Shown here: piece by piece, positions 1,069 through 18,826 of the stretch | How positions within the stretch are numbered: the first letter of the stretch is position 1 | Layout: every line of letters begins with the position of its first letter | NCBI GenBank assembly: GCA_965225855.1 | Contig: CBDDCK010000005.1 | Span: forward strand, 768,001 to 832,000 | Reading direction: 5' to 3' | Length of the DNA stretch: 64,000 nucleotides | Origin: Spirochaetia bacterium | GTDB taxonomy: Bacteria > Spirochaetota > Spirochaetia > SP-2023 | Program-made: the position numbers and the translations under genes | Notes under the pieces: generated by a model | Database searches by the model: none | What the model was told of the DNA's origin: nothing | Seen by the model: only the letters and a program-made list of their open reading frames with translations

Positions 1069-1178
1069 CTAAATACGGGGAGAGCTTAGGCTAAATACGG
1101 GAAGAGCTTTAGACAAATACGGGGAGAGCTTCGGCTAAATACGGGAATAAGTTTGACGCAATACGCAAATAAATTATC
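1069..1178 (+). repeat. 22-bp tandem repeat array 1 (5 units, core CTAAATACG)
   Basis: Units start at 1069, 1091, 1113, 1135, 1157; the last is degenerate. Confidence 0.95.
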
Positions 1179-1192
1179 GTTATACAGTATAA
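1153..1192 (+). promoter_or_regulatory. Putative sigma70 promoter plus palindrome upstream of mod1
   Basis: TTGACG-16 nt-TATCGT, then TTATAC-A-GTATAA (1180-1192), then AGGAG RBS. Confidence 0.55.
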
Positions 1193-1208
1193 ACAAATAG
1201 GAGAAACT

Positions 1209-3095
1209 ATGAAGACCCCACCCCTAAGCCTAGAATACCTAAAGAATTTACTACAAGCCCAGCCGCACTACCTAGACCAAGAGGGCGAGCTAAACACGGC
1301 TTTATTGTATAAGCTAGCCCAGCAGTGCCAGCGCAATTTGCTGGAATTGTTGTTTGCCGATACGGCTGCGCGCAAGGCGTTTTTCTTGGAACAAGGCGGG
1401 GTTACGGTATTTGTGCGCGACCATTTTATCGACTACATACAGCACAAACGCTTTGTGGCCAATAGCTACACCGCCTATCGTAACAAAATTGGCTTGCACG
1501 ATGAGCACGACTATCTAAAGAAAAGCCAAGATGTGGTGCTGGCCTTTCCGTTTAAAGACTGCGTACTGGAAGGTGGCCAAACTAAAGACGATGCCAAGCG
1601 CAGCGAACGCTACTACCACCGCATACTGGCGATAGAACAACTTGACCGCTTGCTGGACCCCAAAGTGCTAACTAACGCGCGCCGCTATACTAAGGAGGGC
1701 CCAAGCGAATGTAGGGAATTTACCCGCAAACCAAGCGACCATACCATTAGCGATAATTTGATTATTAAAGGCAACAATTTAATTGCGTTGCATACCATCA
1801 AGGAACAGTTTGCCAAAAAAGTACAGCTGATCTACATCGACCCACCGTATAACACCGGCAACGATAGCTTTTTGTATAACGACAACTTTAACCACAGCAC
1901 TTGGTTGGTATTTATGAAAAATCGCCTAGAAGCAGCGCGCGAACTGCTGCGAGACGATGGCGTGATTTTTGTTCAGTGTGATGACAACGAACAGGCTTAT
2001 TTGAAGGTACTCATGGACGAAGTCTTTGGACGGGAGAATTTTGTTGCTAGTTTAGTTTATAAAAGAAGAAAAACCCAAGCAAATCTAACTAAGTGGATTG
2101 CTCCTATACATGAATATATTTTAGGATTTGCGAAGAGTAAAAATAGTTTATCAATAAATAGAATACCTTTGCGACAAGAGTATGTGAAAGAAATGTATAA
2201 GAATCCTGATAATGATTCCCGTGGTTTATGGAGAACGAAACCGTTAGCATCGCCTGATAACTCACCTAACAAAGAGTTTGAATTAGATTTAAGAAACGGC
2301 AGAAAAATTAAAGCAAAATGGAGAGTTTCCCAAAAGACTTATGATCAATACTTAAAAGATAATTTAGTCGTTATCCCTAGAGGCGGGGAAGGAATGCCTA
2401 ATGCAAAAGTTTTTTTGAAAGATAATGAAGGGCAAATACCTAATACTCTTTTAATTGATGTTGCAACGAATGAACAAGGCAGTAAAGAAATAGAACTTAT
2501 TTTTGGCTCTAATAGTGCTTTTGCCTATCCCAAGCCGGAAGGGCTGTTACAAAGGATTATCGAGATTGCCACTAAGCAAGGCGACCTAGTGCTAGACTTT
2601 TGTTTGGGCAGCGGAACTACTGCGGCGGTTGCCCACAAAATGGGCAGGCAATATATCGGCATTGAACAAATGGACTATATACAAACTATTGCGGTAGAGC
2701 GCCTTACCAAAGTTATTGCCGGCGAACAGGGCGGCATCAGCAAAAATGTAGCTTGGCAAGGCGGTGGCAGCTTTGTCTATTTAGAGCTGAAAGCGCACAA
2801 CCAAACTTTTATAGGGCGTATTACCGAGGCCACCACCCAAGCGCAAATGGCGCAAATACAGCAAGAGTTACTCAAAAACCCAGATTTGGACTACCGCCTA
2901 AACACCCAAGAGGTACGGCAGAGCGCCGAAGATTTTGCCGCGCTAAGCCTAGACGATCAAAGGCAAGCGCTTATTGACTTTTTGGAACTAAACCAATTAT
3001 ATGTGCCGTATACCGAGCGCAAAGACACGCGCTTTAATTGCACAGACAAAGAAATTAACCTAAGCGAAAGTTTTTACAAGGGAGAAAAATCATGA
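1209..3095 (+). CDS. mod: Type III Mod-like beta-class amino-methyltransferase (copy 1)
   Basis: NLIIKGNNL, motif IV DPPY, central variable region, motif I LDFCLGSGTT. Confidence 0.9.
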   Translation: MKTPPLSLEYLKNLLQAQPHYLDQEGELNTALLYKLAQQCQRNLLELLFADTAARKAFFLEQGGVTVFVRDHFIDYIQHKRFVANSYTAYRNKIGLHDEHDYLKKSQDVVLAFPFKDCVLEGGQTKDDAKRSERYYHRILAIEQLDRLLDPKVLTNARRYTKEGPSECREFTRKPSDHTISDNLIIKGNNLIALHTIKEQFAKKVQLIYIDPPYNTGNDSFLYNDNFNHSTWLVFMKNRLEAARELLRDDGVIFVQCDDNEQAYLKVLMDEVFGRENFVASLVYKRRKTQANLTKWIAPIHEYILGFAKSKNSLSINRIPLRQEYVKEMYKNPDNDSRGLWRTKPLASPDNSPNKEFELDLRNGRKIKAKWRVSQKTYDQYLKDNLVVIPRGGEGMPNAKVFLKDNEGQIPNTLLIDVATNEQGSKEIELIFGSNSAFAYPKPEGLLQRIIEIATKQGDLVLDFCLGSGTTAAVAHKMGRQYIGIEQMDYIQTIAVERLTKVIAGEQGGISKNVAWQGGGSFVYLELKAHNQTFIGRITEATTQAQMAQIQQELLKNPDLDYRLNTQEVRQSAEDFAALSLDDQRQALIDFLELNQLYVPYTERKDTRFNCTDKEINLSESFYKGEKS

Positions 3096-4636
3096 ACGAC
3101 CGTGAAATAGAATTTTTTACACAGATTATTGATAATCCCAATTCTACCAATGAACAGAAGGCGGGGGCGTATGGTAGTAGGGGAAATGCTTACAGCGAAC
3201 AAGGAAAGTATAAAGAGGCCATAGCCGACTTTACCCAAGCCATTGAGCTATTTACAGATAATAACGACAAAGCAATAGCTTATTTCAACAGAGGCCTTAC
3301 TTATTTTCAACAAAAAGGATACGAGCCTGCCATAGCAGACTATAGACAGGCCATTGGCTTATCTACAGATAACAACGACAAAGCAAAGGCGTATTTCAAC
3401 AGAGGCTATGTTTATAGAGAACAAAAAGAATATGAGCCCGCCATAGTGGATTTCACTCAAGCCATTGGGCTATTCACGGATAATAACGACAAAGCCAATG
3501 CGTATTTCAACAGAGGAGCTATTTACGGGGAACAAGAAAAATATAAGCTAGCGATAGCGGATTTTACCCAGGCCATTAGCTTATCTAAAGATAACAACGA
3601 CAAAGCAAAGATATATGATAACAGAGGCAATGCTTACTGTAAAACAGGAAAATACCAACAAGCGATAGCAAACTATACACAAGGGATTGACTTATATACA
3701 GATAACAACGACAAAGCCAATGCGTATTTCAACAGAGGCAATGCGTACAACAAACAAGGAAAATACCAACAAGCGATAGCAAACTATACACAAGGGATTG
3801 ACTTATATACAGATAACAACGACAAAGCCAATGCGTATTTCAACAGAGGCAATGCGTACAACAAACAAGGAAAATATCCAGAAGCCATAGCCGACTATAC
3901 CCAAGCCATTGACTTATACAAAGCGGATAACGACAAAGCAATTGCGTATTTAAACAGAGGCAATGCTTACGGAGAACAAGAAAAATACCAGCAAGCAATA
4001 GATGATTTTACAGAGGCCATTGAGTTATTCACGGATAACAACGATAAAGCAAAGGCATATCATAATAGGGCTATTGTTTACGGAGAACAAGAAAAATACC
4101 AGCAAGCGATAGCGGATTTTACAGAGGCCATTGGCTTATTCACGGATAATAACGACAAAGCCAATGCGTATTATAACATAGGCATTGTTTACGGAGAACA
4201 AGAAAAATACCAGCAAGCAATAGATGATTTTACAGAGGCCATTGAGTTATTCACGGATAACAACGATAAAGCAAAGGCATATCATAATAGGGCTATTGTT
4301 TACGGAGAACAAGAAAAATACCAGCAAGCAATAGATGATTTTACAGAGGCCATTGGCTTATTCACGGATAATAACGACAAAGCCAATGCGTATTATAACA
4401 TAGGCATTGCTTACGGAGAACAAGAAAAATACCAGCAAGCAATAGATGATTTTACAGAGGCCATTGAGTTATTCACGGATAATAACGAAAAAGCAGAGGC
4501 GCATTACAACAGGGGCCTTATTTACAGCAAACAAGAAAAATACGAACAAGCAGTAGCAGATTTTGATGAAGTTACAAAGCTAAACCCAGACCATGAATTA
4601 AAATACTTACAACAAGAAATTGCTGCTATATTATGA
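3092..4636 (+). CDS. TPR protein with about 13 repeats of 37 aa
   Basis: Repeating AYxNRGxxY..Y..AIADFT.AI.L.TDNNDKA; ATGA overlap with the mod1 stop. Confidence 0.92.
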   Translation: MNDREIEFFTQIIDNPNSTNEQKAGAYGSRGNAYSEQGKYKEAIADFTQAIELFTDNNDKAIAYFNRGLTYFQQKGYEPAIADYRQAIGLSTDNNDKAKAYFNRGYVYREQKEYEPAIVDFTQAIGLFTDNNDKANAYFNRGAIYGEQEKYKLAIADFTQAISLSKDNNDKAKIYDNRGNAYCKTGKYQQAIANYTQGIDLYTDNNDKANAYFNRGNAYNKQGKYQQAIANYTQGIDLYTDNNDKANAYFNRGNAYNKQGKYPEAIADYTQAIDLYKADNDKAIAYLNRGNAYGEQEKYQQAIDDFTEAIELFTDNNDKAKAYHNRAIVYGEQEKYQQAIADFTEAIGLFTDNNDKANAYYNIGIVYGEQEKYQQAIDDFTEAIELFTDNNDKAKAYHNRAIVYGEQEKYQQAIDDFTEAIGLFTDNNDKANAYYNIGIAYGEQEKYQQAIDDFTEAIELFTDNNEKAEAHYNRGLIYSKQEKYEQAVADFDEVTKLNPDHELKYLQQEIAAIL

Positions 4637-5790
4637 AACAAGAGTACATAAAGCTTATTGATTATCTCAATATGGCTTTAAGGCGTGGTTTACCGACTGA
4701 ACCTGTAAAAGCATACATTAAAAATACATTTGGCAAACAAGATACTGTTATTGATAGTATACTTGTTATCTTTGAAAATGTTCTCCATATACTAGATGAA
4801 TTAAAGGTAAGCAAAGATTCTAAAGACAAAGTAAAATACCTTTCTCATACAACCAAACTGCCAGTATTTACTAAGTATTTGGTCCCGATAAACAGTGAGG
4901 GAGAACCAGAACTAGGCAAATTGCACATGTACCATATTGCCTATGCCAACGACCCCACCGAAGGAACGGTGCTATTGGACCACTTAGGCATTGCGCACGA
5001 ACCAATAAAATCCAGTGCCAATATTCCCTATGTAATGGTGGCCAGCTTTTGTGGTGGCCAAACACCCGAAGCATTAGACCGTTTGCCCATATGGAGTATG
5101 TACGGCGATGATGCTAAAGGTATTGCCTTGCTCTTTCAAACAGAAGACTTAGCCTATAGTGGGCCAGAGCATGCCCTACCGCGTTTTTCATCATTTGAAT
5201 TTAATAAATTAAGTGATGATAGTAAGCAAGGCAAAGTGGCTACAGTGGCACAAAAAAATAAAGAAAGCACAGAAGAAGCGCCCCCACAGATATTATACAA
5301 AGTCCGATATATAGATAGCAGCAACCAAGAAGTGGATGGGGAAATGAAGGAAATAAGAGACAGCCTTAAACAAATAAAAGAAAAAGAGCAACAAATAAAG
5401 GAAGAGAATAAAAATGACCTTTCGATATACCATAAATGCTTAGAGTTACTAAACGGCATACGCTATTTGATAAAAGACAAAAGCTATGCCCACGAACAAG
5501 AATATCGTTTCGTGTGTTTTGCCGGTACCGAACATATCCCTGAAATACTAAAAAGAGAAGTGCTTACAGAACCAGAACAAGAGCCAAAAGATACCCAAGA
5601 CCATAGCCGCTCTCGTATTTATGTAGAAACCGATATACTAAAGAAGCTATGCGCGGTACTAACGGCCCCGAAAATAGAAAAGGGAAACGTCCTAGATATA
5701 CAGTATATTTTGCATTGGTATACAAAGTCGGACCAATTCCTCAAACCAGAACAATTGCCCGTATATACAAGCAGTATTCCGTACCGCTAG
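4633..5790 (+). CDS. DUF2971-like protein
   Basis: YANDPTEG, LPIWSMYGD.KGIAL and IKDKSYAHEQEYR motifs; ATGA overlap with the TPR gene. Confidence 0.7.
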   Translation: MKQEYIKLIDYLNMALRRGLPTEPVKAYIKNTFGKQDTVIDSILVIFENVLHILDELKVSKDSKDKVKYLSHTTKLPVFTKYLVPINSEGEPELGKLHMYHIAYANDPTEGTVLLDHLGIAHEPIKSSANIPYVMVASFCGGQTPEALDRLPIWSMYGDDAKGIALLFQTEDLAYSGPEHALPRFSSFEFNKLSDDSKQGKVATVAQKNKESTEEAPPQILYKVRYIDSSNQEVDGEMKEIRDSLKQIKEKEQQIKEENKNDLSIYHKCLELLNGIRYLIKDKSYAHEQEYRFVCFAGTEHIPEILKREVLTEPEQEPKDTQDHSRSRIYVETDILKKLCAVLTAPKIEKGNVLDIQYILHWYTKSDQFLKPEQLPVYTSSIPYR

Positions 5791-5807
5791 CTTGCGGCCC
5801 GGCCCGG

Positions 5808-5874
5808 CTCAATACGCAAAGCGCCCCGCTCTAAATACCGAGAGAGCCCCGGCAATATATGCAAAGAACTTTAG
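5808..5874 (+). repeat. Degenerate 22-bp repeat array (about 3 units)
   Basis: ctcaatacgcaaagcgcccc, ctaaataccgagagagccccgg, caatatatgcaaagaactttag. Confidence 0.65.
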
Positions 5875-5885
5875 CAATATAGCGA

Positions 5886-5913
5886 TGGACAAAAATAAAA
5901 GGCACGGTACAAT
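5886..5913 (+). promoter_or_regulatory. Putative promoter of the TIR operon
   Basis: TGGACA-16 nt-TACAAT upstream of a TAAGGAG RBS. Confidence 0.45.
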
Positions 5914-5965
5914 ACTTTTGCTAAGCTATGTTTTAGCCGATAGTAAAGGTTAAGGAGAAACTATT

Positions 5966-6379
5966 ATGAAAACCTACCATTTGTTTATAAGCCATTCTTG
6001 GACTTATGAAAATCAGTATGATAACCTTGTGAATTTATTAAATAATGCGCAGGATTTTAGGTACAAGAATTATTCTGTAGCGAAAGACAACCCTATCCAT
6101 ACTAATGGAACAAACAAACAATTACGAGTTGCGATAGCAGAAAAGATACGAAATAGCTCTGTTATATTAGTTCTTGCTGGAGTATATGCAACATATAGCA
6201 AATGGATTAATATAGAGATAGAAATAGCTAAAAACGACTTTTCACGCAAAAAGCCGATTATTGCCCTTGAACCGCGGGGAGCAAACAGAACATCTCAATA
6301 TGTAAAAGAGAATGCCGATGCCATAGTCAAATGGAATACCAATAGTATAGTTAAAGCCATTCAAGAGCTACGCTCGTAA
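5966..6379 (+). CDS. TIR-domain protein (MTH538/ThsB-like)
   Basis: LFISHSW start, SKWINIEIEIA with a putative catalytic Glu, KKPII. Confidence 0.85.
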   Translation: MKTYHLFISHSWTYENQYDNLVNLLNNAQDFRYKNYSVAKDNPIHTNGTNKQLRVAIAEKIRNSSVILVLAGVYATYSKWINIEIEIAKNDFSRKKPIIALEPRGANRTSQYVKENADAIVKWNTNSIVKAIQELRS

Positions 6380-6380: not shown

Positions 6381-6851
6381 ATGAAAAAGCAAGATAACCC
6401 CGAAATAAGTACCTTATTAGAATTGTACAAACTCTATGTACAAACCGCAGAAAGCACCAGCGATAGAAGGCTGCGCAGTAACCGGTTTTACCTTACCTTT
6501 TGTTCTGTGCTGGCCAGCAGTGCCTATGCTCTGTTTCAGTTGGGGAAAGCAGACGGCTTATTTATATTTATTGCCAGTATTTTTGGCGTGTTGTTTTCTT
6601 TTGTGTGGCTGTGCAATATACGCTCTTACAAGGCCTTAAACAGCGGCAAGTTTGCGGTTATCCATAAGTTAGAGCAACAATTGCCTTTTGCCTGCTTTAG
6701 CGAAGAATGGCAGGAATTAGGGCGCCTGGGCTATAATCAGCGTATAAAGTACCGGCTGCTTAGCAATATTGAAAGTTTTGTACCGATGATCTTTATTGCC
6801 GGCTTTAAGCTGGTGATTCTGCTATATATCTATAGTTATTTTTGGGGCTAA
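6381..6851 (+). CDS. Small multi-TM membrane protein, candidate effector of the TIR gene
   Basis: About 3 hydrophobic segments; YVQTAESTSDRRLRSNRFY and YKALNSGKF.VI..LE..LP motifs; 1 nt after the TIR stop. Confidence 0.7.
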   Translation: MKKQDNPEISTLLELYKLYVQTAESTSDRRLRSNRFYLTFCSVLASSAYALFQLGKADGLFIFIASIFGVLFSFVWLCNIRSYKALNSGKFAVIHKLEQQLPFACFSEEWQELGRLGYNQRIKYRLLSNIESFVPMIFIAGFKLVILLYIYSYFWG

Positions 6852-7079: not shown

Positions 7080-8780
7080 GTGATGGCATACAATACACCG
7101 ATACATACCGAAAATCAAACTTTGGAAGAAATATTTGCCAATAGCAAACAGTACCAAGTACCTAAATTCCAGCGGGACTATTCTTGGGAACAAGAGCAAT
7201 GGCAAGTATTGTGGGACGATATTCAAACTATTGCCGAAGCTAGCGAAGACTACCACTATATGGGCTACTTAGTATTACAACAGGGGCAGCAAAACAAACA
7301 ATTTATTGTTGTCGATGGCCAGCAACGGCTTACGACCTTTTCTTTACTGGCACTTAGTGCGATTGGCAGGTTTAAGCAGTTAGGGCATGCGGATACCGCT
7401 AAAGAGTTTTTCCGCCGTTTTATTGGTTCAGAACAATATAGCTTTATTAAGATAACAGAGAAAAAACTTATCTTAAACAAGAACAATGAATATTATTACA
7501 ATCAATTAGTTAGCTTTTACAAACAAGACGCAGCAGCACAGCAAGCCCCGATACACAAGAGAGGCCAAAAGCAAACCGTTATTCTTATGGGCAAAGCGAT
7601 AGAGTATTTTAGCCAGCAGCTGGCTGGGCTAAGTGCCCAAAAAATCAGTGAGCTACTGCAAACTATGGCCGAGCGGGTATTGTTTACCACTATTTTTATT
7701 GCCGATCAAGTAAATGCCTACAAGATTTTTGAAACCTTAAACGCGCGCGGCGTACAGCTTAGCACGGGAGACTTACTAAAAAACTATATTTTTTCAGCAA
7801 TAGATACAAATGGACAAATCCCCGATGAAGAGCTAAACAGACTGGAAGAGATATGGGAAAACATAGGCCACAACGTTGGCAAGCATAAATACAGCGACTA
7901 TATTTTAGTGCAATGGAAAAGTAGCCATAGGCCTTTGCGCCCCAAACAACACCTTTTTACCACGATAAAAAAGCAGGTTTGTGGCGAGCAGCAAGCCAGT
8001 ACATACTTACAAATATTAGAACAAGACAGCGAGTTGTACAGTGCTTTGCTGGATTATGAGCACCATCTTTGGAAAGATTTTGACCAGTACCAGCAAGTAA
8101 CACAAGATATACGGGTACTGAATTTGTTTAACCTAAAGCAACCGATTAGCGTATTGCTAGCTGCGTACAAAAAATACAAGCCCAAACAATTTGCCACTAT
8201 ATTGCATTGGCTGATGGTATTTTCTATCCGCTACAATGTGATTTGCCGCTTGTATGCCAGTGAGCAAGAACATTTTTATAGTAAATTATGCCAACAAATA
8301 CAGCAACAAACGCCACTTGCCGAAGTAAAAACAACTATGCTGCAAGGTTTGTACCCCAACGATGAACTATTTAAACGGGCTTTTAGCGAAAAGTCCCTGC
8401 CAACCGAACAATCAAATAAGAAAGCTCGCTATATACTGGTAGCCCTGTGCCAATGCATGGGCGATAAAGCCCTTGATGAACAGCAACTTACCGTAGAACA
8501 CTTATTGCCACTAAAGCCCAATCAATTTTGGCAAGATAGTTTTGAGCAATCCACTAAGGCCTTTGCTACCCGTTTGGGCAATATGGCCCTAGTGGATTCT
8601 AAGATCAATCAGGAATTGGGGCAAAAACCCTTTGCCCAGAAAAGGCAGATGATCTTACAACAAAACATTTGCCCAATAAACCAAAGCCTGGCCGATTATA
8701 TGGAATGGACAACCGATACAATCCATTCGCGCCAAAGGGAAATGGCGCAAACAGCGTGCCGAACTTGGCAAATCAATTAA
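7080..8780 (+). CDS. GmrSD-like DUF262 + DUF1524 (HNH) nuclease
   Basis: FQRDYSW, VDGQQRLTT, FETLNARG, VEHLLP, LGNMAL. Confidence 0.88.
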   Translation: MMAYNTPIHTENQTLEEIFANSKQYQVPKFQRDYSWEQEQWQVLWDDIQTIAEASEDYHYMGYLVLQQGQQNKQFIVVDGQQRLTTFSLLALSAIGRFKQLGHADTAKEFFRRFIGSEQYSFIKITEKKLILNKNNEYYYNQLVSFYKQDAAAQQAPIHKRGQKQTVILMGKAIEYFSQQLAGLSAQKISELLQTMAERVLFTTIFIADQVNAYKIFETLNARGVQLSTGDLLKNYIFSAIDTNGQIPDEELNRLEEIWENIGHNVGKHKYSDYILVQWKSSHRPLRPKQHLFTTIKKQVCGEQQASTYLQILEQDSELYSALLDYEHHLWKDFDQYQQVTQDIRVLNLFNLKQPISVLLAAYKKYKPKQFATILHWLMVFSIRYNVICRLYASEQEHFYSKLCQQIQQQTPLAEVKTTMLQGLYPNDELFKRAFSEKSLPTEQSNKKARYILVALCQCMGDKALDEQQLTVEHLLPLKPNQFWQDSFEQSTKAFATRLGNMALVDSKINQELGQKPFAQKRQMILQQNICPINQSLADYMEWTTDTIHSRQREMAQTACRTWQIN

Positions 8781-8801
8781 CATACAGGCAAACCACCCCG
8801 G

Positions 8802-8911
8802 CTAAATACGGGAAGAGCCCGAGCTAAATACGGAGAGAGCTTGGGCTAAATACGGGGAGAGCCCGCCCTAAATACGGGAATAACTTCGGCGCAATACGCA
8901 AATAGATTATA
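8802..8911 (+). repeat. 22-bp tandem repeat array 2 (5 units)
   Basis: Units start at 8802, 8824, 8846, 8868, 8890. Confidence 0.95.
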
Positions 8912-8941: not shown

Positions 8942-9109
8942 ATGAAAAGCCAATCCCTAAGCCTAGAATCCTTAAAAGCTTTGCTAAAGGCACAACACCA
9001 CTACCTAGACCAAGAAGGCGAGCTAAACACAGCTTTGCTGCATAAGCTAGCCCAACAGTGTGAGCACAATTTGCTGGAATTGTTATGGGCAGACAAAATT
9101 ATTGGATAA
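8942..9109 (+). pseudogene. 5' remnant of a mod paralog (55 aa)
   Basis: MKSQSLSLESLKALLKAQHHYLDQEGELNTALLHKLAQQCEHNLLELL matches the mod N-termini, then stops. Confidence 0.9.
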
Positions 9110-9126: not shown

Positions 9127-9294
9127 ATGAATAAACCTAGTAAAGAGACTAAATTTAAAACGGTTATCGAGAGAAATACCTTTTATTTTTACAACAAGAT
9201 ATTTGAAGAAAAATATGAAGGATATTTAAATTCTCTAAAAGAAACTTTAGTGATTCTAAAATATAAAATAGAAGAGGTTTTTTCTGGAAAATAA
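9127..9294 (+). pseudogene. 55-aa ORF, possible truncated restriction endonuclease
   Basis: MNKPSKETKFKTVIERNTFYFYNKIFEEKYEGYLNSLKETL...; directly upstream of an MTase; resemblance to a DpnII-family N-terminus is from memory only. Confidence 0.4.
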
Positions 9295-10249: not shown

Positions 10250-10300
10250 ATCAATACCAATAGCCTCTGCTCCAAAATTATTTGCGCCAAACCACCCCGG

Positions 10301-10432
10301 CTAAATACGCAAAGCGCCCCGGCTAAATACGCTTAGAGCTTGGGCTAAATACGGGAAGAGCCCGCCTTAAATACGGGAATAACTTTGGTTAAATACGGGA
10401 ATAAGTTTGACGCAATACGCAAATAAATTATA
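10301..10432 (+). repeat. 22-bp tandem repeat array 3 (6 units)
   Basis: Units start at 10301, 10323, 10345, 10367, 10389, 10411. Confidence 0.95.
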
Positions 10433-10462: not shown

Positions 10463-12409
10463 ATGAAGACCCCAGCCCTAAGCCTAGAATCCTTAAAAAC
10501 TTTGCTACAAGCCCAGCCGCACTATGTAGACCCAGAAGGCGAGCTCAACACGGCTTTATTGTATAAGCTAGCCCAGCAGTGCCAGCGCAATTTGCTAGAA
10601 TTGTTGTTTGCGGACACGGCCGCGCGCAAGGCGTTTTTCTTGCAGCAGGGCGGGGTTACGGTGTTTGTGCGCGACCATTTTATCGACTACATACAGCACA
10701 AACGCTTTGTAGCCAACAGCTACACCGCCTATAAAAACAAAATCGGCTTGCACGATGAGCACGACTATCTAAAGAAAAGCCAAGATATTGTGCTGGCCTT
10801 TCCGTTTAAAGACTGCGTACTGGAGGGTGGCCAAACTAAAGACGATGCCAAACGCAGCGAACGCTACTACCACCGCATACTGGCGATAGAGGAACTTGAC
10901 CGCTTGCTGGACCCCAAAGTGCTAACTAACGCGCGCCGCTACACTAAGGAGGGCCTAAGCGAATGTAGGGAATTTACCCGCAGCCCAAGCAATAATACCA
11001 TTAGCGACAATTTGATTATCAAGGGCAACAACCTTATCGCCTTGCACAGCATCAAGGAACAATTTGCCAAAAAAGTAAAGCTGATCTATATCGACCCGCC
11101 ATATAATCCTCAAAGCCCCAATAATACTTTTTGCTACAATAATAATTTTAACCGTTCTACTTGGTTAGTGTTTATGAAAAATCGCTTGGAAGTAGCCAAG
11201 CAATTATTGACAGAAGACGGAGCGATAATTATTGCCATTGATGACAATGAAAGGGATTATTTGGGCGTTTTGTTAAGAGAATTATTTCATGAAGACCAAC
11301 ACGAAACCCATTGTATTACCATTGTGCACAACCCTCGTGGGGTACAAGGCACAAATTTTTCTTATACCCATGAATACGCATTCTTTGTAATACCCAAAGG
11401 AAAAAAGACTATTATAAACCAAAAAATAGCAGCAGAAAATATTACTTTTAGAGGTTTACGAGACAATGGCGGTATAAGTTTAAGAAGTGATGCTAAGAAT
11501 TGTTTTTATCCGATTATAGTAGATAAACAGAGCAAGCAAGTTATTGGCTTTGGGGCAGTCTGTGAAGATAGCTTTTCTCCCAAAGCGCGCATGATAGAAC
11601 ATGCCGATACGTATGCTATTTATCCGGTAGATGATGGCGGCGTAGAACGCAAATGGCGGTATGCCTATCAATCGGTAGCCAAAGTAAAGCACTTGTTGCG
11701 TGCTAGAGAAGTAAAAGGTATATGGGATATTCAAATAGGCAAAGACTTTCGCCAATACCCAACGGTATGGCAAAATACCAAATATGATGCCAATGAATAC
11801 GGCACGAAACTGATTAAATCTTTAGTGCCCAATGCCAGCTTTGACTTTCCCAAATCTTTATGGACTGTGTACGACTGCCTCTATGCTGTTGTCGGAGAAG
11901 ATAAAAATGCGATTGTTTTAGATTATCATGCGGGTAGTGGCACAACCGCACACGCTGTATTGGAATTAAATAAACAAGACAACGGCAATCGGCAATTTAT
12001 ACTTTGTGAACAAATGGACTATATAGAAAATGTAACCAGTCAAAGAATCCAAGCTGTATTAAAGCAAGAAAATATAGATAACAGCTTTGTCTATTTGGAG
12101 CTAAAACAGCACAACCAAGGCTTTATACAGCGTATTACCGAGGCCACCACCCAAGCGCAACTTAGCGCAATACAGCAAGAGTTACTGCAAAACCCCGATT
12201 TGGACTACCGCCTGAATACCGAAGCCGTGCAACAAAGCACCGAAGATTTTGCTGCGCTAAGCCTAGACAATCAAAGGCAAATATTGATAGACTTTTTGGA
12301 ACTCAACCAATTGTATGTGCCGTATAGCGAGCGCAAAGATACGCGCTTTCATTGCACGGACCAAGAAATACCACTAAGCGAAAGTTTTTACAACGGAGGC
12401 CAAGCATGA
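10463..12409 (+). CDS. mod: Type III Mod-like methyltransferase (copy 2)
   Basis: DPPYN and LDYHAGSGTT; N- and C-termini near-identical to copy 1, central part unrelated. Confidence 0.9.
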   Translation: MKTPALSLESLKTLLQAQPHYVDPEGELNTALLYKLAQQCQRNLLELLFADTAARKAFFLQQGGVTVFVRDHFIDYIQHKRFVANSYTAYKNKIGLHDEHDYLKKSQDIVLAFPFKDCVLEGGQTKDDAKRSERYYHRILAIEELDRLLDPKVLTNARRYTKEGLSECREFTRSPSNNTISDNLIIKGNNLIALHSIKEQFAKKVKLIYIDPPYNPQSPNNTFCYNNNFNRSTWLVFMKNRLEVAKQLLTEDGAIIIAIDDNERDYLGVLLRELFHEDQHETHCITIVHNPRGVQGTNFSYTHEYAFFVIPKGKKTIINQKIAAENITFRGLRDNGGISLRSDAKNCFYPIIVDKQSKQVIGFGAVCEDSFSPKARMIEHADTYAIYPVDDGGVERKWRYAYQSVAKVKHLLRAREVKGIWDIQIGKDFRQYPTVWQNTKYDANEYGTKLIKSLVPNASFDFPKSLWTVYDCLYAVVGEDKNAIVLDYHAGSGTTAHAVLELNKQDNGNRQFILCEQMDYIENVTSQRIQAVLKQENIDNSFVYLELKQHNQGFIQRITEATTQAQLSAIQQELLQNPDLDYRLNTEAVQQSTEDFAALSLDNQRQILIDFLELNQLYVPYSERKDTRFHCTDQEIPLSESFYNGGQA

Positions 12410-13506
12410 ATAACCGTGAAATAGAACAGTATACAAGGATTATTGACGACCCCAATTCTACCAATGAACAGAAGGCGGAGGTGTATATAGATAGGGGGCT
12501 TACTTATGCTATACAAGGGGAATTTGTAAAAGCGATAGCGGATTTTACAGAGGCTATAGGGCTAGCAACAGATAATGAAACGAAAGCAAATGTATATTTA
12601 GACAGAGGGCTTACTTACAGCAAACAAGGAAAATACCAGCAAGCGATAGCCGACTTTAACCAAGCCATTGAGTTAGCAACAGATAATGAAACGAAAGCAA
12701 AGGTTTATAACAACAGAGGAGCTATTTACAGCGAACAAGGAGAATACCAGCTAGCGCTAGCGGATTTTACCCAGGCCATTAAGCGATATACGGATAATAA
12801 CGACAAAGCCAATGCGTATATCAACAGAGGCGTTGCTTATGATGAACAAGAAAAATATCCAGAGGCCATAGCCGACTATAAAAATGCCTTAAACTTAAAC
12901 CCAAAACTTAAAGAAGCAAGAATAAATCTAGCTATAGCCGAAGTAAAAGAAAAACAAGCAAAATTTGACCGTTTATCTGGGGAGGCTCGCAGTTTTGGGT
13001 TGGCAAAAGAATATCAAGAGGAACAAGATAAACTAAACAAATATGTGAAGAAATGTACAAAATGGTTTATAGTAGGAATAGGAGCGCTAATCGTTGTAGT
13101 CTTATTGCAGATTACAGTAGGAATATTATCACTATTTGGTGTAACTTTCTGGCGGATCGATTGGAGTAAGATTTCTTTTAGTCTTACGACTATACTCACT
13201 ACCTTGCCTTTGCTTGCCCCCATAATATGGCTTACCAGTTTCTTTGCCAAACGCAGGAGCGAGGCCAATATGCTTTTGCAAGAATATAGCCACAAAACCA
13301 TATTTGCCAAATCGTATATTGCCTATAAACAGGAAATAGAAAAGCTAGAAAGCCCAGACTCGAACCTACAGCCCAAGTTATTAGAAGCAATGATAGAGAC
13401 ACTAAAACGCAGCCCGACAACTATTTTTAGCAAAAAACACTCCAGCGACTTACCGATTGAAGAGCTAAAGCAAATAATCGAGCTTGCCAAAACACTAAAA
13501 AGTTAG
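12406..13506 (+). CDS. TPR + coiled-coil + 2TM protein
   Basis: Start MNNREIE at the ATGA overlap; about 5 TPRs, then two hydrophobic segments and an EYSHK..AKSY tail. Confidence 0.85.
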   Translation: MNNREIEQYTRIIDDPNSTNEQKAEVYIDRGLTYAIQGEFVKAIADFTEAIGLATDNETKANVYLDRGLTYSKQGKYQQAIADFNQAIELATDNETKAKVYNNRGAIYSEQGEYQLALADFTQAIKRYTDNNDKANAYINRGVAYDEQEKYPEAIADYKNALNLNPKLKEARINLAIAEVKEKQAKFDRLSGEARSFGLAKEYQEEQDKLNKYVKKCTKWFIVGIGALIVVVLLQITVGILSLFGVTFWRIDWSKISFSLTTILTTLPLLAPIIWLTSFFAKRRSEANMLLQEYSHKTIFAKSYIAYKQEIEKLESPDSNLQPKLLEAMIETLKRSPTTIFSKKHSSDLPIEELKQIIELAKTLKS

Positions 13507-13532
13507 CGTTGCCTTTCAAGAAATAGCCTGCC

Positions 13533-13664
13533 CTAAATACGCTTAGAGCTTGGGCTAAATACGGTCAGAGCCTGCCCTAAATACGGGAAGAGCTTGGGCT
13601 AAATACGGGGAGAGCCCGCCCTAAATACGGGGAGAGCTTGGCCACTGTAGGCAAATAAATTATA
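13533..13664 (+). repeat. 22-bp tandem repeat array 4 (5 units plus a degenerate one)
   Basis: Units start at 13533, 13555, 13577, 13599, 13621; endings alternate gcttggg and gccYgcc. Confidence 0.95.
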
Positions 13665-13694
13665 GTTATACAGTATAAACAAATGGGAGAAATC

Positions 13695-15668
13695 ATGAAA
13701 ACCCCACCCCTAAGCCTAGAATCCTTAAAAGCTTTGCTACAAGCCCAGCCGCACTATGTAGACCCAGAAGGTGAACTGAACACGGCTTTATTGCACCAGC
13801 TAGCGCAGCAGTGCCAGCGCAATTTGCTGGAATTATTGTTTGATAATAGCGCTACCCGGCAGGCGTTCTTTTTTGAGCACGAAGGGCACAGCGTATTTGT
13901 GCGCGACCATTTTATCGACTACATACAGCACAAACGCTTTGTGGCCAATAGCTACACCGCCTATCGTAATAAAATTGGCTTGCACGATGGCCAAGACTAC
14001 CTAAAGAAAAACAAGGATATTGTACTGGCCTTTCCATTTAAAGACTGCGTTTTGGAAGGCGGTCAAAGCAAAAGCGAGGCCAAACGCAGCGAACGCTACT
14101 ACCACCGCATACTGGCGATAGAGGAACTTGACCGCTTGCTGGAGCCCAAAGTGCTGTGCAACGCGCGCCGCTACACTAAGGAGGGCCCAAGCGAATGTAG
14201 GGACTTTACCCGCAATAACAGCAATAATACCATTAGCGACAATTTGATTATCAAGGGCAACAATTTAATTGCCTTGCACAGCATCAACGAACAATTTGCC
14301 AAAAAAGTAAAGCTGATCTATATCGACCCGCCGTACAACACCGGCAACGATAGCTTTTTGTACAACGACAATTTTAACCATTCTACTTGGCTAGTATTTA
14401 TCAAAAACCGTCTGGAAATAGCGCGCAAGCTATTGCGAGGGGACGGGGTGATTTTTGTGCAGTGTGATGATAACGAAATGGCTTATTTAAAGGTGTTGAT
14501 GGACGAAGTCTTTGGACGGGAGAATTTTGTCAGTACCATCACCACAAGAGCAACGCCGAATGCCAGAGACTATGGATTGATTGCGCAAATGCATGAATTT
14601 ATTTTGTTTTATGCAAACGATGTTGTTCGAGCAAATACCAATTTAATCGATATGGAGGACAACCATCAGAAAGGCTTTTGTTATACAGACCAAAAAGGAG
14701 AATTTAATATCCATCCTCTGTATAACAGTAATGTCAATTTTCATATTGACAATAGACCAAACTTATTTTACCCATTCTACCTAAATACTCATAAAACAGA
14801 TCAAAACGGCTTCTTTGAAATTTCTTTGGAAAAACAAAGTGGTTGTATCGAAATTTACCCACCAAAATCCCAAAAGGATAGTGTTCAGTTGGTCTGGCGA
14901 TGGGGCAAAGAAAAATCTTTAGCAAATATTAACAAAGAAATTGTCGGTTATCAAACAAGACAAGGTCTATTTAGAATTGTGCAAAAAATGCGTGGAGATA
15001 AACAGCTTGCTAGAACTATATGGTTTGATACAAGTATTTCGAATAGAAGAGCTACAGAAGATTTACAAAAGCTGTTTGCGGAAAAAGTCTTTGCCTATCC
15101 CAAGCCGGAAGGGCTGTTACAAAGAATTATCGAGATTGCCACTAAGGAAGGCGACCTAGTTTTGGACTTTTGTTTGGGCAGCGGCACGACTGCGGCGGTG
15201 GCCCACAAAATGGGCCGGCAATATATCGGCATAGAACAAATGGACTATATACAAACTATTGCGGTAGAGCGCCTTGCCAAAGTAATTGCCGGCGAGCAGG
15301 GCGGTATCAGCAAAAATGTGGGCTGGGCCGGCGGTGGCAGCTTTGTCTATTTGGAGCTGAAAGCACACAACCAAGCTTTTATACAGCGTATTACCGAGGC
15401 CAGCAGCCAAGCGCAACTTAGCGAAATCCAGCAAGAGTTACTACAAAACCTCGATTTGGACTACCGCCTAAATACCGAAGCCGTGCAACAAAGCGCCGAA
15501 GATTTTGCCGCGCTAAGCCTAGAAAAGCAAAGGCAAATATTGATAGACTTTTTGGAACTCAACCAATTATATGTGCCGTATAGCGAGCGCAAAGACACCC
15601 GCTTTAGCTGCACACAACAAGAAATACCACTAAGCGAAAGTTTTTACAACGGAGGAAACCATGAATAA
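13695..15668 (+). CDS. mod: Type III Mod-like methyltransferase (copy 3)
   Basis: DPPYN and LDFCLGSGTT; start MKTPPL chosen by comparison with the paralogs. Confidence 0.9.
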   Translation: MKTPPLSLESLKALLQAQPHYVDPEGELNTALLHQLAQQCQRNLLELLFDNSATRQAFFFEHEGHSVFVRDHFIDYIQHKRFVANSYTAYRNKIGLHDGQDYLKKNKDIVLAFPFKDCVLEGGQSKSEAKRSERYYHRILAIEELDRLLEPKVLCNARRYTKEGPSECRDFTRNNSNNTISDNLIIKGNNLIALHSINEQFAKKVKLIYIDPPYNTGNDSFLYNDNFNHSTWLVFIKNRLEIARKLLRGDGVIFVQCDDNEMAYLKVLMDEVFGRENFVSTITTRATPNARDYGLIAQMHEFILFYANDVVRANTNLIDMEDNHQKGFCYTDQKGEFNIHPLYNSNVNFHIDNRPNLFYPFYLNTHKTDQNGFFEISLEKQSGCIEIYPPKSQKDSVQLVWRWGKEKSLANINKEIVGYQTRQGLFRIVQKMRGDKQLARTIWFDTSISNRRATEDLQKLFAEKVFAYPKPEGLLQRIIEIATKEGDLVLDFCLGSGTTAAVAHKMGRQYIGIEQMDYIQTIAVERLAKVIAGEQGGISKNVGWAGGGSFVYLELKAHNQAFIQRITEASSQAQLSEIQQELLQNLDLDYRLNTEAVQQSAEDFAALSLEKQRQILIDFLELNQLYVPYSERKDTRFSCTQQEIPLSESFYNGGNHE

Positions 15669-16737
15669 CCGTGACATAGAACGATACACAGAGATTATTG
15701 AAAACTCGAATTTTTCAGATAAAGAGAGGGTAAAAGCGTATAACAACAGAGGCAATGCTTACAGGAGACAAAAAGAATATGAGCCCGCAATAGCGGATTT
15801 TATAGAGGCTATTGCGTTAGCAACAGATAATGAAACAAAAGCAATTGCGTATTTCAACAGAAGCTTTGCGTACTTTCAGCAAAAGAAATACGAGCTAGCG
15901 ATAAAGGACTTTACGCAAACCATTGATTTATTTACATATAGTAACCAAATGATACAGCGAGTGTTAAGAGAAGCTAAGACAAACTTTGATAATCGAGATT
16001 ATAGTGAAGCGATAGAAAAATATCAAAATATAATTCCTTCCTTAAAAGAGAATGAGGTTGGGAAAAAAGCGTATCAAGGGAGAAGTGATTCATATTTAAA
16101 ATTGGGAAAGCATAATGAGTCGATAGCCGATCATAAAAAGGCCATAGACTTAGATAGGCAATTAGAATCAGCAAAACTTTATTTGTGCCTTGCAGAAACA
16201 AAAAAGGCAGTAGAAGAAAGCAATAAGGTAAAAGAGGAATTTCAAAGCTTATATGGAGATGCCGGCAGTATTGGGCTGGCAACAGGATATGAAAAGCAAC
16301 AAGATAAACTAAATAAATATGTGAAGAAATGTACGATATGGTTTATAGTAGGAATAGGAGCGCTAATCGCTGTAGCTTTATGGCAGATATTTTGCAATAA
16401 GGATTCTTTTAGTCTTACTACTATACTCACCGCCTTGCCTTTGCTTGCCCCCATAATATGGCTTACCAGTTTCTTTGCCAAACGCAGGAGCGAGGCCAAT
16501 ATGCTTTTGCAAGAATATAGCCACAAAACCATATTTGCCAAATCTTATAGTGCTTATAAACAGGAAATAGAAAACCTAAAAAGCCCAGACTTGAACCTAC
16601 AGCCCAAGCTATTAGCAGCAATGATAGACACCATAAAACACAGCCCGAAAACTATTTTTAGCAAAAAACACTCCAGCGACTTACCGATTGAAGAGCTAAA
16701 GCAAATAATCGAGCTTGCTAAAACATTAAAAAGTTAG
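15661..16737 (+). CDS. TPR + coiled-coil + 2TM protein (paralog of 12406-13506)
   Basis: Different TPR set; C-terminal region near-identical to the paralog; overlaps the mod3 stop. Confidence 0.85.
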   Translation: MNNRDIERYTEIIENSNFSDKERVKAYNNRGNAYRRQKEYEPAIADFIEAIALATDNETKAIAYFNRSFAYFQQKKYELAIKDFTQTIDLFTYSNQMIQRVLREAKTNFDNRDYSEAIEKYQNIIPSLKENEVGKKAYQGRSDSYLKLGKHNESIADHKKAIDLDRQLESAKLYLCLAETKKAVEESNKVKEEFQSLYGDAGSIGLATGYEKQQDKLNKYVKKCTIWFIVGIGALIAVALWQIFCNKDSFSLTTILTALPLLAPIIWLTSFFAKRRSEANMLLQEYSHKTIFAKSYSAYKQEIENLKSPDLNLQPKLLAAMIDTIKHSPKTIFSKKHSSDLPIEELKQIIELAKTLKS

Positions 16738-16785
16738 CGTTGTCTTTCAAGAAATAGCCCGGGCGATTCAGGCCAAGCGCCCCGG

Positions 16786-16917
16786 CTAAATACGGGAAGC
16801 GCCCGCCTTAAATACGGGGAGAGCCGAAGCTAAATACGGGAAGCGCCCGCCCTAAATACGCTTAGAGCTTGGGCTAAATACGGGAAGAGCCCGCCCTAAA
16901 TACGCTTAGAGCTTGGC
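16786..16917 (+). repeat. 22-bp tandem repeat array 5 (6 units)
   Basis: Units start at 16786, 16808, 16830, 16852, 16874, 16896. Confidence 0.95.
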
Positions 16918-16969
16918 CACTGTAGATAAATTGATTATGATTATACACTATAACTAAATAGGAGAAACC

Positions 16970-17137
16970 ATGAAGACCCCACCCCTAAGCCTAGAAAGTC
17001 AAAAGAAAATACTTGTCGGCTTTTGGGAACTCAATCAATTATATGTTCCCTACACCGAACGCAAGGACACGCGCTTTAACTGCACGGACCAAGAAATTAC
17101 CCTAAGCGAGAATTTTTGTATGGGAGGCCAAGCATGA
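16970..17137 (+). pseudogene. In-frame internally deleted mini-mod (55 aa)
   Basis: MKTPPLSLE (mod N-terminus) fused to SQKKILVGFWELNQLYVPYTERKDTRF...GGQA (mod C-terminus). Confidence 0.9.
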
Positions 17138-18170
17138 GCAACAAAGAAATAGAACGGTACACACAAATTATTGAAACCCCAATTCTACCAATGAAGAGAG
17201 GGCGGTGGCGTATGGTGGTAAAGGGATTACTTATTTTCAACAAAAAGAATACGAGCCCGCCATAGCCGACTTTAACCAAGCCATTGAGTTATTTACAGAT
17301 AATAACGACAAAGCAATAGCTTATACCAACAGAGGCAATGCTTATAAAGAACAAAAAGAATACGAGCCCGCCATAGCGGACTTTAACCAAGCCATTGAGT
17401 TATTTACAGATAACAACGACAAAGCAATAGCTTATACCAACAGAGGCGCTGCGTACTTTGAACAAGGAGAATACCAGCTAGCAATAGCGGATTTTACCCA
17501 GGCCATTGGGCTAGCTGTAGATAATAACCTTAAAGCAATGGCATATATTGACAAAGGAACTGCTTACGAACAACAAGAACAATACGAGCCCGCCATAGCG
17601 GACTTTACCCAAGCCATTCATTTATACAGAGATAACAACGAAAAAGCAAAGGCTTATAACGGCAGAGGCCTTACTTATGGGAAACAAGAACAATACGAGC
17701 CCGCCATAGCGGACTACACACAGGCCATTGAGCGATATATGGATAATAACTTTAAAGCAAAGGCCTATAACAACAGAGGCTATGCTTACGGAGAACAAGA
17801 AAAATACCAACAAGCGATAGCGGACTACACACAGGCCATTGGCTTATTTACAGACAATAACGACAAAGCAAAGGCCTATAATAACAGAGGCTATGCTTAC
17901 GGAGAACAAGAAAAATACCAACAAGCGATAGCGGACTACACACAGGCCATTGGCTTATTTACAGACAATAACGACAAAGCAAAGGCCTATAACAACAGAG
18001 GCTATGCTTACGGAGAACAAAAAGAATACGAGCTAGCGATAGCGGACTTTACCCAAGCCATTCATTTATACAGAGATAACAACGACAAAGCAAAGGCCTA
18101 TAATAACAGAGGCCTTACTTATGGGAAACAAGAAAAATATGATAATGAAGGAAATAAAGAAGAATCTTAA
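17134..18170 (+). pseudogene. Frameshifted and truncated TPR gene
   Basis: Starts MSNKEIERYTQIIE; one-base shift near 17175 versus paralogs; ORF 17205-18170 carries about 8 TPRs. Confidence 0.8.
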
Positions 18171-18552
18171 AATAATTAAGAGAAAAAGAGCCGAATGTAT
18201 ACCCAAAAAGTTTAGAGTTACTAAGCGGTTTGCACTATTTGATAAAAGATGCCAGCTATGCCTACGAACAAGAATACCGTTTCGTGTGTTTTGCCAGCAC
18301 AGAACATATGCCCGAGATATTACAAAGAGAAAACCAGACCAAGAGCCAAAAGATACCCAAGACCATAGCTGCTCTCGTATTTATGTAGAAACCGATATAC
18401 TAGAAAAGTTATCCGCGGTGCTAACGGCCCCGAAAATAGAAAAGGCAAAAGTCCTAGATATACAGTATTTTTTGCATTGGTATACAAAGTCGGGCCAATT
18501 CTCCAAACAAGAACAATTGCCTGTATATACAAGCCGTATTCCGTACCGCTAG
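18145..18552 (+). pseudogene. 3' remnant of the DUF2971-like gene
   Basis: QEPKDTQDHS.SRIYVETDIL...LPVYTS.IPYR is near-identical to 4633-5790; 5' part missing and frameshifted. Confidence 0.85.
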
Positions 18553-18826
18553 CTTGCCGCCCGGCCCGGCCTGCACTTGACTGCACGCAAAAAATATATA
18601 CACAACAACTCAAGAAATTCCCCTAGGCAAAGCGTTTTACTGCCAAGCTCCTAAGTTTTGAATACTTAAAAGATTGACTAAAGACAAAGTCCCTTGTTCA
18701 ATTTAGTTTTTTGCTGCTGCATATAAACCTTGTATAAATACGAAACTATTGATATATTCAAGCCGTTATAATTCTTTTACTTTTTTGATCTTTGTACTTT
18801 TTTGAACCATTTTAAGGAGTTTATCT

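Follow-up and report, generated by a model that had tools for sequence, protein, structure and literature searches.

Ten cassettes of a type III methyltransferase gene and a TPR-effector gene, with one displaced res gene, in a Spirochaetia genome

Results

We analysed a 64,000-nucleotide stretch of a Spirochaetia bacterium genome (G000:C5:768001-832000, hereafter the window; G000 is the whole genome), which holds the larger part of a defence island of about 23 kb. We found that the island is built around repeated cassettes, in each of which an array of 22-bp repeats and a conserved leader precede mod, a gene for a type III DNA methyltransferase, and the mod stop codon is overlapped by a gene for a tetratricopeptide repeat (TPR) protein linked to an effector domain. 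G000 carries ten such cassettes with seven intact Mods, and a single res gene of the family cognate to these Mods lies close to the left end of the window. The best explanation, to which we give an even chance, is a restriction-modification (R-M) system of type III with many Mods and one Res, into which putative TPR sensor-toxin genes are nested, each mod being co-transcribed with one of them.

Ten cassettes with seven intact Mods

Half of the ten cassettes lie in the window array; the other five make up a second array on the minus strand (C5:110.7-132.2 kb), at a distance of about 640 kb. The second array consists of four leader/mod/TPR cassettes and one cassette that has lost mod by deletion and keeps an intact TPR gene of 1273 amino acids (aa). 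Besides the seven intact Mods, the ten cassettes include two mod deletions and one hollowed mod, and the PF12564 profile has seven matches in G000, three in the window and four in the second array. Tandem arrays were called by Tandem Repeats Finder (TRF) and genes by open reading frame (ORF) listing with direct reading, while protein families were assigned with Pfam and NCBIfam and defence families with PADLOC.

A preliminary description of this DNA had reported five 22-bp leaders with a ribosome-binding site and mod starts at 1209, 8942, 10463, 13695 and 16970, all of which were recovered by TRF and in the sequence. It had counted five mod copies on this basis; the starts stand, and only three of the genes are full length, the one at 8942 being hollowed and the one at 16970 internally deleted. 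It had further described four TPR genes overlapping the mod stop, and the ORFs starting at 3092, 12406, 15661 and 17134 do begin before the stop of the gene ahead, with overlaps of 4 or 8 nt (4 nt at 3092, 4 nt at 12406 and 8 nt at 15661). The gene at 17134 is not intact, since it has two frame changes, near 17190 and near 18120, and its ATG is out of frame with the TPR ORF 17205-18170. The elements of the window cassettes are as follows, all on the + strand.

1067..1154, +, 22-bp array 1, 3.6 copies (TRF, sequence)
1153..1180, +, sigma-70-like match TTGACG-16-TATCGT at the array/leader junction (consensus scan)
1209..3095, +, type III Mod of cassette 1, 628 aa, intact (N6_N4_Mtase 4.6e-49, TypeIII_RM_meth 1.1e-15, PADLOC MTase_III 618.7 bits)
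3092..4636, +, TPR protein of cassette 1, 514 aa, about 13 TPRs of 37 aa (TPR_1 7e-118 in 13 stretches; 111-bp tandem repeat, 12.1 copies)
4633..5790, +, DUF2971 protein, 385 aa, predicted ADP-ribosyltransferase-like effector (Pfam DUF2971 30.2 bits)
8797..8898, +, 22-bp array 2 (TRF, sequence)
8942..9109, +, mod 5' remnant of cassette 2, 55 codons then a stop (translation; 80% identity to the first 40 residues of Mod 1)
9127..9294, +, DpnII-like type II endonuclease remnant, 55 codons (blastn against L084, whose ORF matches Pfam DpnII at 1.6e-06)
9300..10217, +, type II-like N6/N4 DNA methylase, 305 aa, its endonuclease lost (N6_N4_Mtase 2.6e-51, PADLOC MTase_II 224.4 bits)
10295..10426, +, 22-bp array 3 (TRF)
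10463..12409, +, type III Mod of cassette 3, 648 aa, intact (Pfam; PADLOC MTase_III 432 bits)
12406..13506, +, TPR protein of cassette 3 with C-terminal coiled-coil/membrane domain, 366 aa (TPR_1 7.5e-36; hydrophobic stretches 214-251 and 256-281)
13525..13641, +, 22-bp array 4 (TRF)
13695..15668, +, type III Mod of cassette 4, 657 aa from 13695, intact, an upstream ATG at 13683 being also open (Pfam; PADLOC MTase_III 622.8 bits)
15661..16737, +, TPR protein of cassette 4 with the same membrane C-terminus, 358 aa (TPR_1 6e-20; hydrophobic stretches 220-247 and 249-273)
16784..16916, +, 22-bp array 5 (TRF, sequence)
16970..17137, +, internally deleted mod of cassette 5, 10 N-terminal and about 45 C-terminal codons (translation against Mod termini)
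17134..18170, +, broken TPR gene of cassette 5 (three-frame translation; TPR_1 7.4e-75 on 17205-18170)
18121..18552, +, DUF2971 effector remnant, 143-aa ORF in the third frame, of which only the C-terminal half resembles 4633-5790 (blastn 5426-5808 against 18198-18570, 87%; no Pfam match)

All seven intact Mods have the motifs D211-P-P-Y214 and G467-S-G-T-T471 without variation. The three window Mods match Pfam N6_N4_Mtase (3.8e-22 to 4.6e-49) together with an N-terminal TypeIII_RM_meth domain, and their best PADLOC match is MTase_III (432-623 bits). Against the PDB, the Mod profile found the type III Mod 6k0w (7.3e-65), EcoP15I 4zcf (9.6e-52) and Mbo45V 7dsu (3e-43). Judged by these matches, the mods encode type III DNA methylases, which are closer to proven type III Mods than to type II enzymes.

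The Mods differ mainly in the target recognition domain (TRD), which occupies alignment columns 281-520 between two conserved arms, the first 280 residues (77-95% identical) and the last ~110 (67-92% identical). Identity among the TRDs is 16-35%; a single pair, formed by the cassette 1 Mod and the Mod at G000:C5:130075-131961, stands apart at 98%, so that there are six TRD types among the seven intact Mods. The TRD of cassette 3 is the most divergent, with 16-18% identity to the others.

The preliminary description had named misassembly among the outcomes that would overturn it, and we considered whether the array arose by false joining of a repeat or consists of dead paralogs. In favour of such an origin, two of the five window cassettes are clearly degraded, and the cassettes are not bridged by short-read contigs. 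The divergence of the copies speaks strongly against it: they are 80-88% identical in DNA, and a difference of 12-20% is far too large for a collapse or expansion artefact. In addition, the seven Mods are open with invariant catalytic motifs, synonymous divergence (dS) between them is 0.28-0.56, and the ratio of nonsynonymous to synonymous divergence (dN/dS) is 0.12-0.22, which indicates purifying selection. Contigs from the sequence runs X1-X3, which come from a single sample, and X4 were aligned to the window, and in the three runs of one sample the unique parts, including TRD and effector segments, were covered with 0 mismatches; the order of the cassettes rests on the assembly. Such contigs drop rare variants, and the stretch 9511-10144 was covered by no contig in any run, a hole that is uninformative. 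From the DNA identity and dS together, the Mod copies are best read as old, selected paralogs and not as an assembly artefact, a possibility that we regard as hardly credible. Apparent contig joints were rejected as rearrangements, all of them falling within repeats with sides of 20-32 letters, except for one of 112 letters (7003 to 1, with 16 mismatches).

The hollowed mod of cassette 2, 55 codons and a stop, is followed by a DpnII-like remnant and the intact type II-like methylase at 9300-10217, and the same insert is found in G071, another genome of the class, where the endonuclease is intact (336 aa). By blastn, window 9001-9272 corresponds to L084 1316-1589 (87%) and window 9274-10203 to L084 2407-3336 (94%), and about 817 bp of the endonuclease gene are gone in the window relative to G071. 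The insert is thus 94% identical in DNA, whereas the flanking Mods of G000 and G071, two genomes of different families, share only ~45% protein identity; this suggests a recent transfer of the type II methylase insert between the two lineages. On the evidence of the remnant, loss of the endonuclease has left an orphan type II-like methylase in the window.

A single displaced res gene

The preliminary description had found no res gene. This holds inside the window, where none of the PF04851 (ResIII) matches of G000 falls; for the genome it does not, as an intact cognate res lies outside. The gene, Res854 (854 aa, no stops; G000:C5:763920-766484, L018:9920-12484), lies 1.5 kb left of window base 1 and 2.7 kb upstream of cassette 1, behind three genes. 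It matches ResIII at 3.6e-29 and PADLOC REase_III with 400 bits over residues 38-852. Res854 is 35% identical end to end (E 3e-149) to the Res of G022, which directly follows the nearest outside Mod homolog, with GTGKT, DEAHH and the C-terminal EPD...EPKG aligned; it also shares 56% identity with the Res of G116, a genome in which the Mod has 54% identity to Mod 1. It is the single copy of its family in G000 and has only the helicase core in common (E 4e-08) with the Res proteins of the two canonical EcoP15I-like pairs of this genome. By these comparisons Res854 is an intact type III Res of the family cognate to the cassette Mods. Calls of orphan mods based on a window can therefore mislead when res is displaced by a few kb.

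The two canonical EcoP15I-like mod-res pairs consist of a 665-aa Mod with a 979-aa Res, and a 657-aa Mod separated by three small ORFs from a 971-aa Res. Both pairs (C5:532890-544596, which is L019) carry a 22-bp array upstream, and the start of the second canonical mod recurs in identical form elsewhere, at C5:1810026.

A class-wide search with the PF12564 profile over 401 genomes, G000 included, found the family in 16, and over the cut-off in 13 (12 besides G000). In all 12 other genomes, the Mod has a member of the Res854 family downstream, which directly abuts it in seven (G022, G060, G145 twice, G154, G240, G248 and G383). Among the rest, G116 has a gap of ~800 bp between mod and res, G051 has three ORFs between them, G068 and G400 have an interrupted mod or both genes broken, and in G071 res lies 7 kb beyond mod. 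A TPR gene right after mod was found in none of these 12 genomes, and a res directly after mod at none of the seven intact Mods of G000. The earlier suggestion that the TPR gene occupies the res slot is thus supported. Among three genomes of the same genus, the cassette Mod family is absent in all three, and the Res854 family is absent in both of those tested for it.

TPR genes and their effectors

Most genes in the TPR slot share the N-terminus MNxREIExYTxII.NPNSTNEQ, followed by ~3 to >25 copies of a 37-residue TPR. At the DNA level they are 111-bp tandem repeats of 73-84% identity (window 3218-4564, 12563-12881 and 17238-18139), and slippage or recombination has probably altered the repeat number. 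The N-terminus of one TPR gene is of another type, similar to that of stand-alone G071 genes, and yet this gene overlaps its mod stop as well.

Two kinds of effector were found at the ends of the TPR genes, DUF2971 in two sub-types and a membrane domain. Window cassette 1 has the DUF2971 domain (Pfam PF11185, cut-off 22 bits) as a gene of its own, an 833-aa protein carries it as a fusion, a further cassette has it split, and there is a divergent form. The separate gene overlaps the end of the TPR gene by 4 nt, and the same parts are fused in the 833-aa protein (L016:4707-7208). The C-terminus of a 610-aa TPR protein matches DUF2971 with 25.7 bits, and the divergent form matches the PADLOC candidate PDC-S31 with 101 bits. 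Matches over the Pfam cut-off occur at five places in G000, all in cassettes. The membrane effector, with ~170 residues forming a coiled coil and two hydrophobic stretches, has three matches in G000, again all in cassettes (window cassettes 3 and 4, and one in the second array), and the C-terminus of cassette 4 is 82% identical to that of cassette 3. No Pfam family matched the membrane domain; its assignment as DUF6161 (ESM Atlas score 0.92) was unsupported by hmmscan at E up to 5.

These results agree with the preliminary description on two points: the effectors, DUF2971 and a membrane domain, look like defence proteins, and the unit has been amplified and diversified, into ten cassettes in two arrays with six types of TRD and two kinds of effector.

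For the action of DUF2971, the literature gives a direction. The family is described as DarT-like ADP-ribosyltransferases with a Tyr motif II and an ExE motif III (PMC12522546), and DUF2971 is the sole domain of Aristaios, a single-gene abortive-infection system of lactococci (PMC11381338). In our alignment, Y285, E288 and E290 (YAHEQEYRF; Tyr motif II, ExE motif III) are invariant in all 15 sequences. An AlphaFold2 model (pLDDT 67.5) had DarT as its top match in Foldseek (E 1.1, not significant) and, weakly, in a search independent of Foldseek. A DUF2971 profile run against PDB sequences matched only TPR proteins, through its TPR-like N-terminus. A DarT-like ADP-ribosyltransferase fold of the DUF2971 effector is therefore proposed as a supported lead. 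The effector genes have dN/dS values of 0.21-0.98 and evolve fast.

Since the TPR gene sits in the exact res slot, with the same overlap as between mod and res elsewhere, the TPR protein might replace Res: the Mod would find unmethylated sites, and a TPR protein docked where Res docks would, in the DUF2971 class, ADP-ribosylate the DNA instead of cutting it. The likening of DUF2971 to the DNA-modifying DarT (PMC12522546) and the DarT fold match would fit this idea. Against it, three cassettes carry the membrane effector, which could not act on DNA, and the island has kept its cognate Res intact. Moreover, relatives of the effector work without a Mod, for example in the single-gene Aristaios (PMC11381338), and stand alone in other genomes, and we consider a replacement of Res distinctly improbable.

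The TPR-DUF2971 gene outside the cassettes

Relatives of DUF2971 were sought in three ways: by protein search (E <= 1e-5), in genome contigs and in metagenome contigs. The protein search returned 12 other proteins, five of them with TPR families. At the 14 loci in genome contigs, a TPR gene is adjacent or fused in eight and a Mod of the cassette family is nearby in one, in G071; at L053 a weak methylase match lies on the opposite strand near the DUF2971 gene. The 38 metagenome loci contain no Mod or Res match, and a TPR gene is adjacent in four. TPR-DUF2971 fusions without any Mod or Res match are found at L045, L046, L047, L048, L052 and L055. These counts indicate that the TPR-DUF2971 gene is usually free-standing, and the proposal of a self-standing, widespread Mod-TPR module was not supported.

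The G071 locus is related but scrambled: it runs from a 964-aa TPR-DUF2971 fusion through two mods and two unrelated genes to a hollowed mod that contains the type II pair, with a DUF4917 gene and then res at the end. The same genome offers a second kind of home, L046 (G071:C1:104581-121714), where two TPR-DUF2971 genes and fragments lie among lipoprotein genes with no mod. A pattern search of genome contigs built on the Mod alignment found no relative, its patterns being too specific, and a TPR N-terminal alignment found none in metagenome contigs. Among the matches listed in searches of an open-access library, none dealt with a type III Mod that has TPR genes behind it.

The 22-bp repeat leader

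The unit of the arrays is 22 bp long (also seen as a period of 44, with two alternating unit types), with a consensus of about GGCTAAATACGGGAAGAGCCCG. Each of the five window arrays ends 65 bp before the mod ATG and is followed by a near-identical leader with the ribosome-binding site AGGAGA. Sigma-70-like matches lie at the array/leader junction in four of the five leaders (1153-1180, 10407-10434, 13638-13666 and 16913-16941), with the -35 element at the array end. In total such sites number 61, against 45.2 in shuffles (sd 7.1), which is not above shuffles, and only their conserved position is notable.

The preliminary description had counted the repeat leader as part of the cassette; by its distribution, the repeat is not specific to it. 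With a loose core motif, we found 28 arrays in the genome, each of 2-15 copies. They precede all nine mod starts of the cassette Mod family and three canonical type III mods, and others lie near lipoprotein-family genes and beside defence-like genes, in both orientations. Searches of five other genomes, including two from the same genus, did not find the motif. We suggest that the array is a species-specific, promoter-proximal DNA element, perhaps an array of binding sites. An RNA structure was dropped as an explanation, the folding z-scores against shuffles ranging from -1.96 to +0.18, and Rfam at the gathering threshold gave 0 matches in window 1-19000.

Array sites elsewhere include C5:1231284-1231599 (15 copies), C5:83548-83884, C5:1008488-1014447 and C4:302647-302698, and the array neighbours include a 758-aa TIR-like gene, ATPase genes and an 894-aa methylase gene. 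The lipoproteins are a multi-copy set of 560-750 aa that share the signal peptide MYKLKLLLLPVA..LAFMALACAPPDDDD and look like a variable surface-protein family, with loci among others at C4:302982, C5:289981, C5:976172, C5:1231932, C5:1564826 and C5:1948124.

An alternative reading is an epigenetic repertoire, in which the Mods would act mainly as phasevarion-like regulators whose expression is set by the 22-bp copy number, and the TPR genes would be passengers. Array copy number does vary among the cassettes, from 2 to 6, the array abuts a promoter-like site, it also stands before genes of contingency type (lipoproteins and other R-M genes), and phase-variable type III Mods are well known (PMC5909438). 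Against this, none of the seven mod ORFs contains simple repeats (the longest homopolymer is 7, units of 2-7 nt reach at most 3 copies, and TRF found none). No indels changing array length were seen in the aligned contigs of one sample, in which rare variants would be lost. The intact cognate Res argues for restriction, and the cassettes lie in a defence island that also has GmrSD and TIR genes. A mainly regulatory role of the Mods is, on balance, a rather poor prospect.

Neighbouring genes of the island

Left of res lie an HU-like gene and then core genes (dnaX, recR and a peroxiredoxin gene), and right of cassette 5 core genes resume (aldose epimerase-like, BolA and glutaredoxin). No integrase was seen in the ~23-kb island. 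The interval between res and cassette 1 contains a helix-turn-helix (HTH) gene and a HicB-like antitoxin-HTH gene (G000:C5:766738-767869, L018:12738-13869), followed by the ParA-like gene that opens the window. The remaining genes of the island within the window lie between cassettes 1 and 2, outside the repeated unit.

1..1041, +, ParA-like ATPase gene, 343 aa from the ATG at 10 (Pfam AAA_31 1.7e-13, CbiA 4.2e-09; NCBIfam ParA_partition below cut-off)
5966..6379, +, ThsB-like TIR protein, 137 aa, island neighbour outside the repeated cassette (ThsB_TIR 3e-17, PADLOC ThsB 7.6e-13)
6381..6851, +, 8xMP membrane protein, 156 aa, neighbour (Pfam 8xMP 7e-34)
7080..8780, +, GmrSD-type (type IV) restriction enzyme, 566 aa, neighbour (GmrSD_N 6.7e-37, GmrSD_C 4.2e-22, PADLOC HEC-06 533.8 bits)

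The ThsB-like TIR gene and the 8xMP gene (window 5966-6851), recorded with a gap of 2 nt, may form a two-gene defence pair of a TIR protein and a membrane effector; no ThsA was seen there.

Discussion

We propose that the island encodes two layers of defence. Each Mod is predicted to methylate a motif of its own, and any Mod could probably recruit the single Res in trans through the conserved parts outside the TRD, which would give up to six restriction specificities, on the pattern of the mycoplasma locus with three mod and one res. The TPR part would bind a phage-derived protein and free the effector, which would abort the infection independently of Mod, either by DarT-like ADP-ribosylation (DUF2971) or by membrane damage (the other class). 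Joint transcription from a common leader would do no more than link the two layers, and duplication and recombination at the conserved mod ends and the leader may have spread and shuffled the unit. The 22-bp array would stand outside this mechanism, as a genome-wide promoter-proximal element and probably an array of binding sites. The autonomy of the TPR-effector is favoured by the intact 1273-aa protein encoded behind a deleted mod.

Several observations weigh against this proposal. All eight intact-looking effector domains of G000 are in cassettes and none is elsewhere, every TPR start overlaps the stop of a mod or mod remnant wherever checked, and two N-terminal lineages of TPR proteins fill one slot. 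In G071, a TPR-DUF2971 gene again lies beside two mods. Res854 adjoins no mod and is ~640 kb from the second array, its pairing with the Mods being predicted. Furthermore, one effector class, the membrane domain, belongs to no known family, and some of the fast-evolving effector genes may be decaying.

Most of the points on linkage would fit a guard similar to PrrC, in which the TPR protein would be kept silent on a conserved part of Mod, or on Mod2Res, until a phage anti-restriction protein frees the effector and the cell is killed or arrested. Its position in an R-M locus and its translational coupling to mod in every cassette, the confinement of all G000 effector copies to cassettes, the refilling of the slot by a second TPR lineage and the gene beside mod-mod in G071 all count for a guard, and there is a precedent in PrrC of EcoprrI, which is triggered by T4 Stp (PMC1484252, PMC12707154). 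However, the TPR-DUF2971 relatives lack a nearby Mod at all 38 metagenome loci and at 13 of the 14 in genome contigs, and the linkage is thus not conserved. The intact TPR-effector persists behind a deleted mod, though the genome still has, in trans, Mods that share those conserved parts, and there is no homology to PrrC. We therefore consider a PrrC-like guard unlikely.

A closely related proposal, which we likewise consider unlikely, is that the TPR-effector is a dedicated partner of Mod on its conserved arms, where Res would dock, and fires its ADP-ribosyltransferase or membrane toxin when a phage disables or hijacks the methylase. If this is true, such a 'guarded methylase' would be a modular immune system, amplified ten-fold, with swappable specificities and effectors.

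If the many-Mod, one-Res reading with autonomous TPR sensor-toxins is right, one small genome keeps six type III specificities on a single Res, with an abortive-infection gene welded to each methylase gene. This would be a compact layered immunity, restriction first and suicide second, made from exchangeable TRDs, TPR numbers and effectors. Three questions could be studied on this locus: is it phage proteins or the state of an R-M enzyme that TPR-DUF2971 proteins sense, can one Res serve many Mods, and what does the genome-wide 22-bp repeat do at loci of contingency type?

Comparison with known systems

Each part of this arrangement is already known singly, namely type III loci with several mods, the shuffling of TRDs, defence genes inside R-M operons, and abortive genes based on TPR or DUF2971. 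What is new is the combination and its scale: a ten-fold unit of mod and TPR-effector, six specificities, two effector kinds, a displaced res and a genome-wide repeat leader.

The closest counterparts of the mods are the mycoplasma loci, such as Mbo45ORF167P of M. bovis PG45 with three mod and one res, and a similar locus in M. pulmonis (bioRxiv 10.64898/2026.05.01.722158). They too have mod paralogs with conserved ends and differing middles and a single res. In contrast, G000 has seven intact Mods in two distant arrays with a Res that adjoins none of them, and each of its mods has a 22-bp array in front and a TPR-effector gene behind. In other type III operons the slot after mod also accepts foreign genes, for example the three ORFs between mod and res in G051, whereas in G000 the nested gene has been amplified tenfold together with mod, and res has been left at the island edge.

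As in EcoprrI, a type Ic system, where PrrC is a toxic abortive-infection gene nested in an R-M operon (PMC1484252, PMC12707154), a predicted toxic gene is nested in the cassettes. There is no sequence relation between the two; the putative sensor is a TPR protein and not an ABC-ATPase, the effector is DUF2971 or a membrane domain and not a tRNase, and the host system is type III and not type I. With Aristaios and with DarT of DarTG, the DUF2971 effectors of G000 share a DUF2971 domain over the Pfam cut-off, an invariant ExE and DarT as the best, though weak, fold match. They differ in that the domain is fused or coupled to long TPR arrays behind a methylase gene, and no DarG-like antitoxin gene was seen. 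Phasevarions of Haemophilus, Neisseria and Moraxella resemble the cassettes in having Mod alleles that differ only in the TRD and repeats linked to the gene (PMC5909438), while the repeats of G000 are 22-bp units upstream of the promoter and not short repeats in the ORF, and all alleles are present in one genome.

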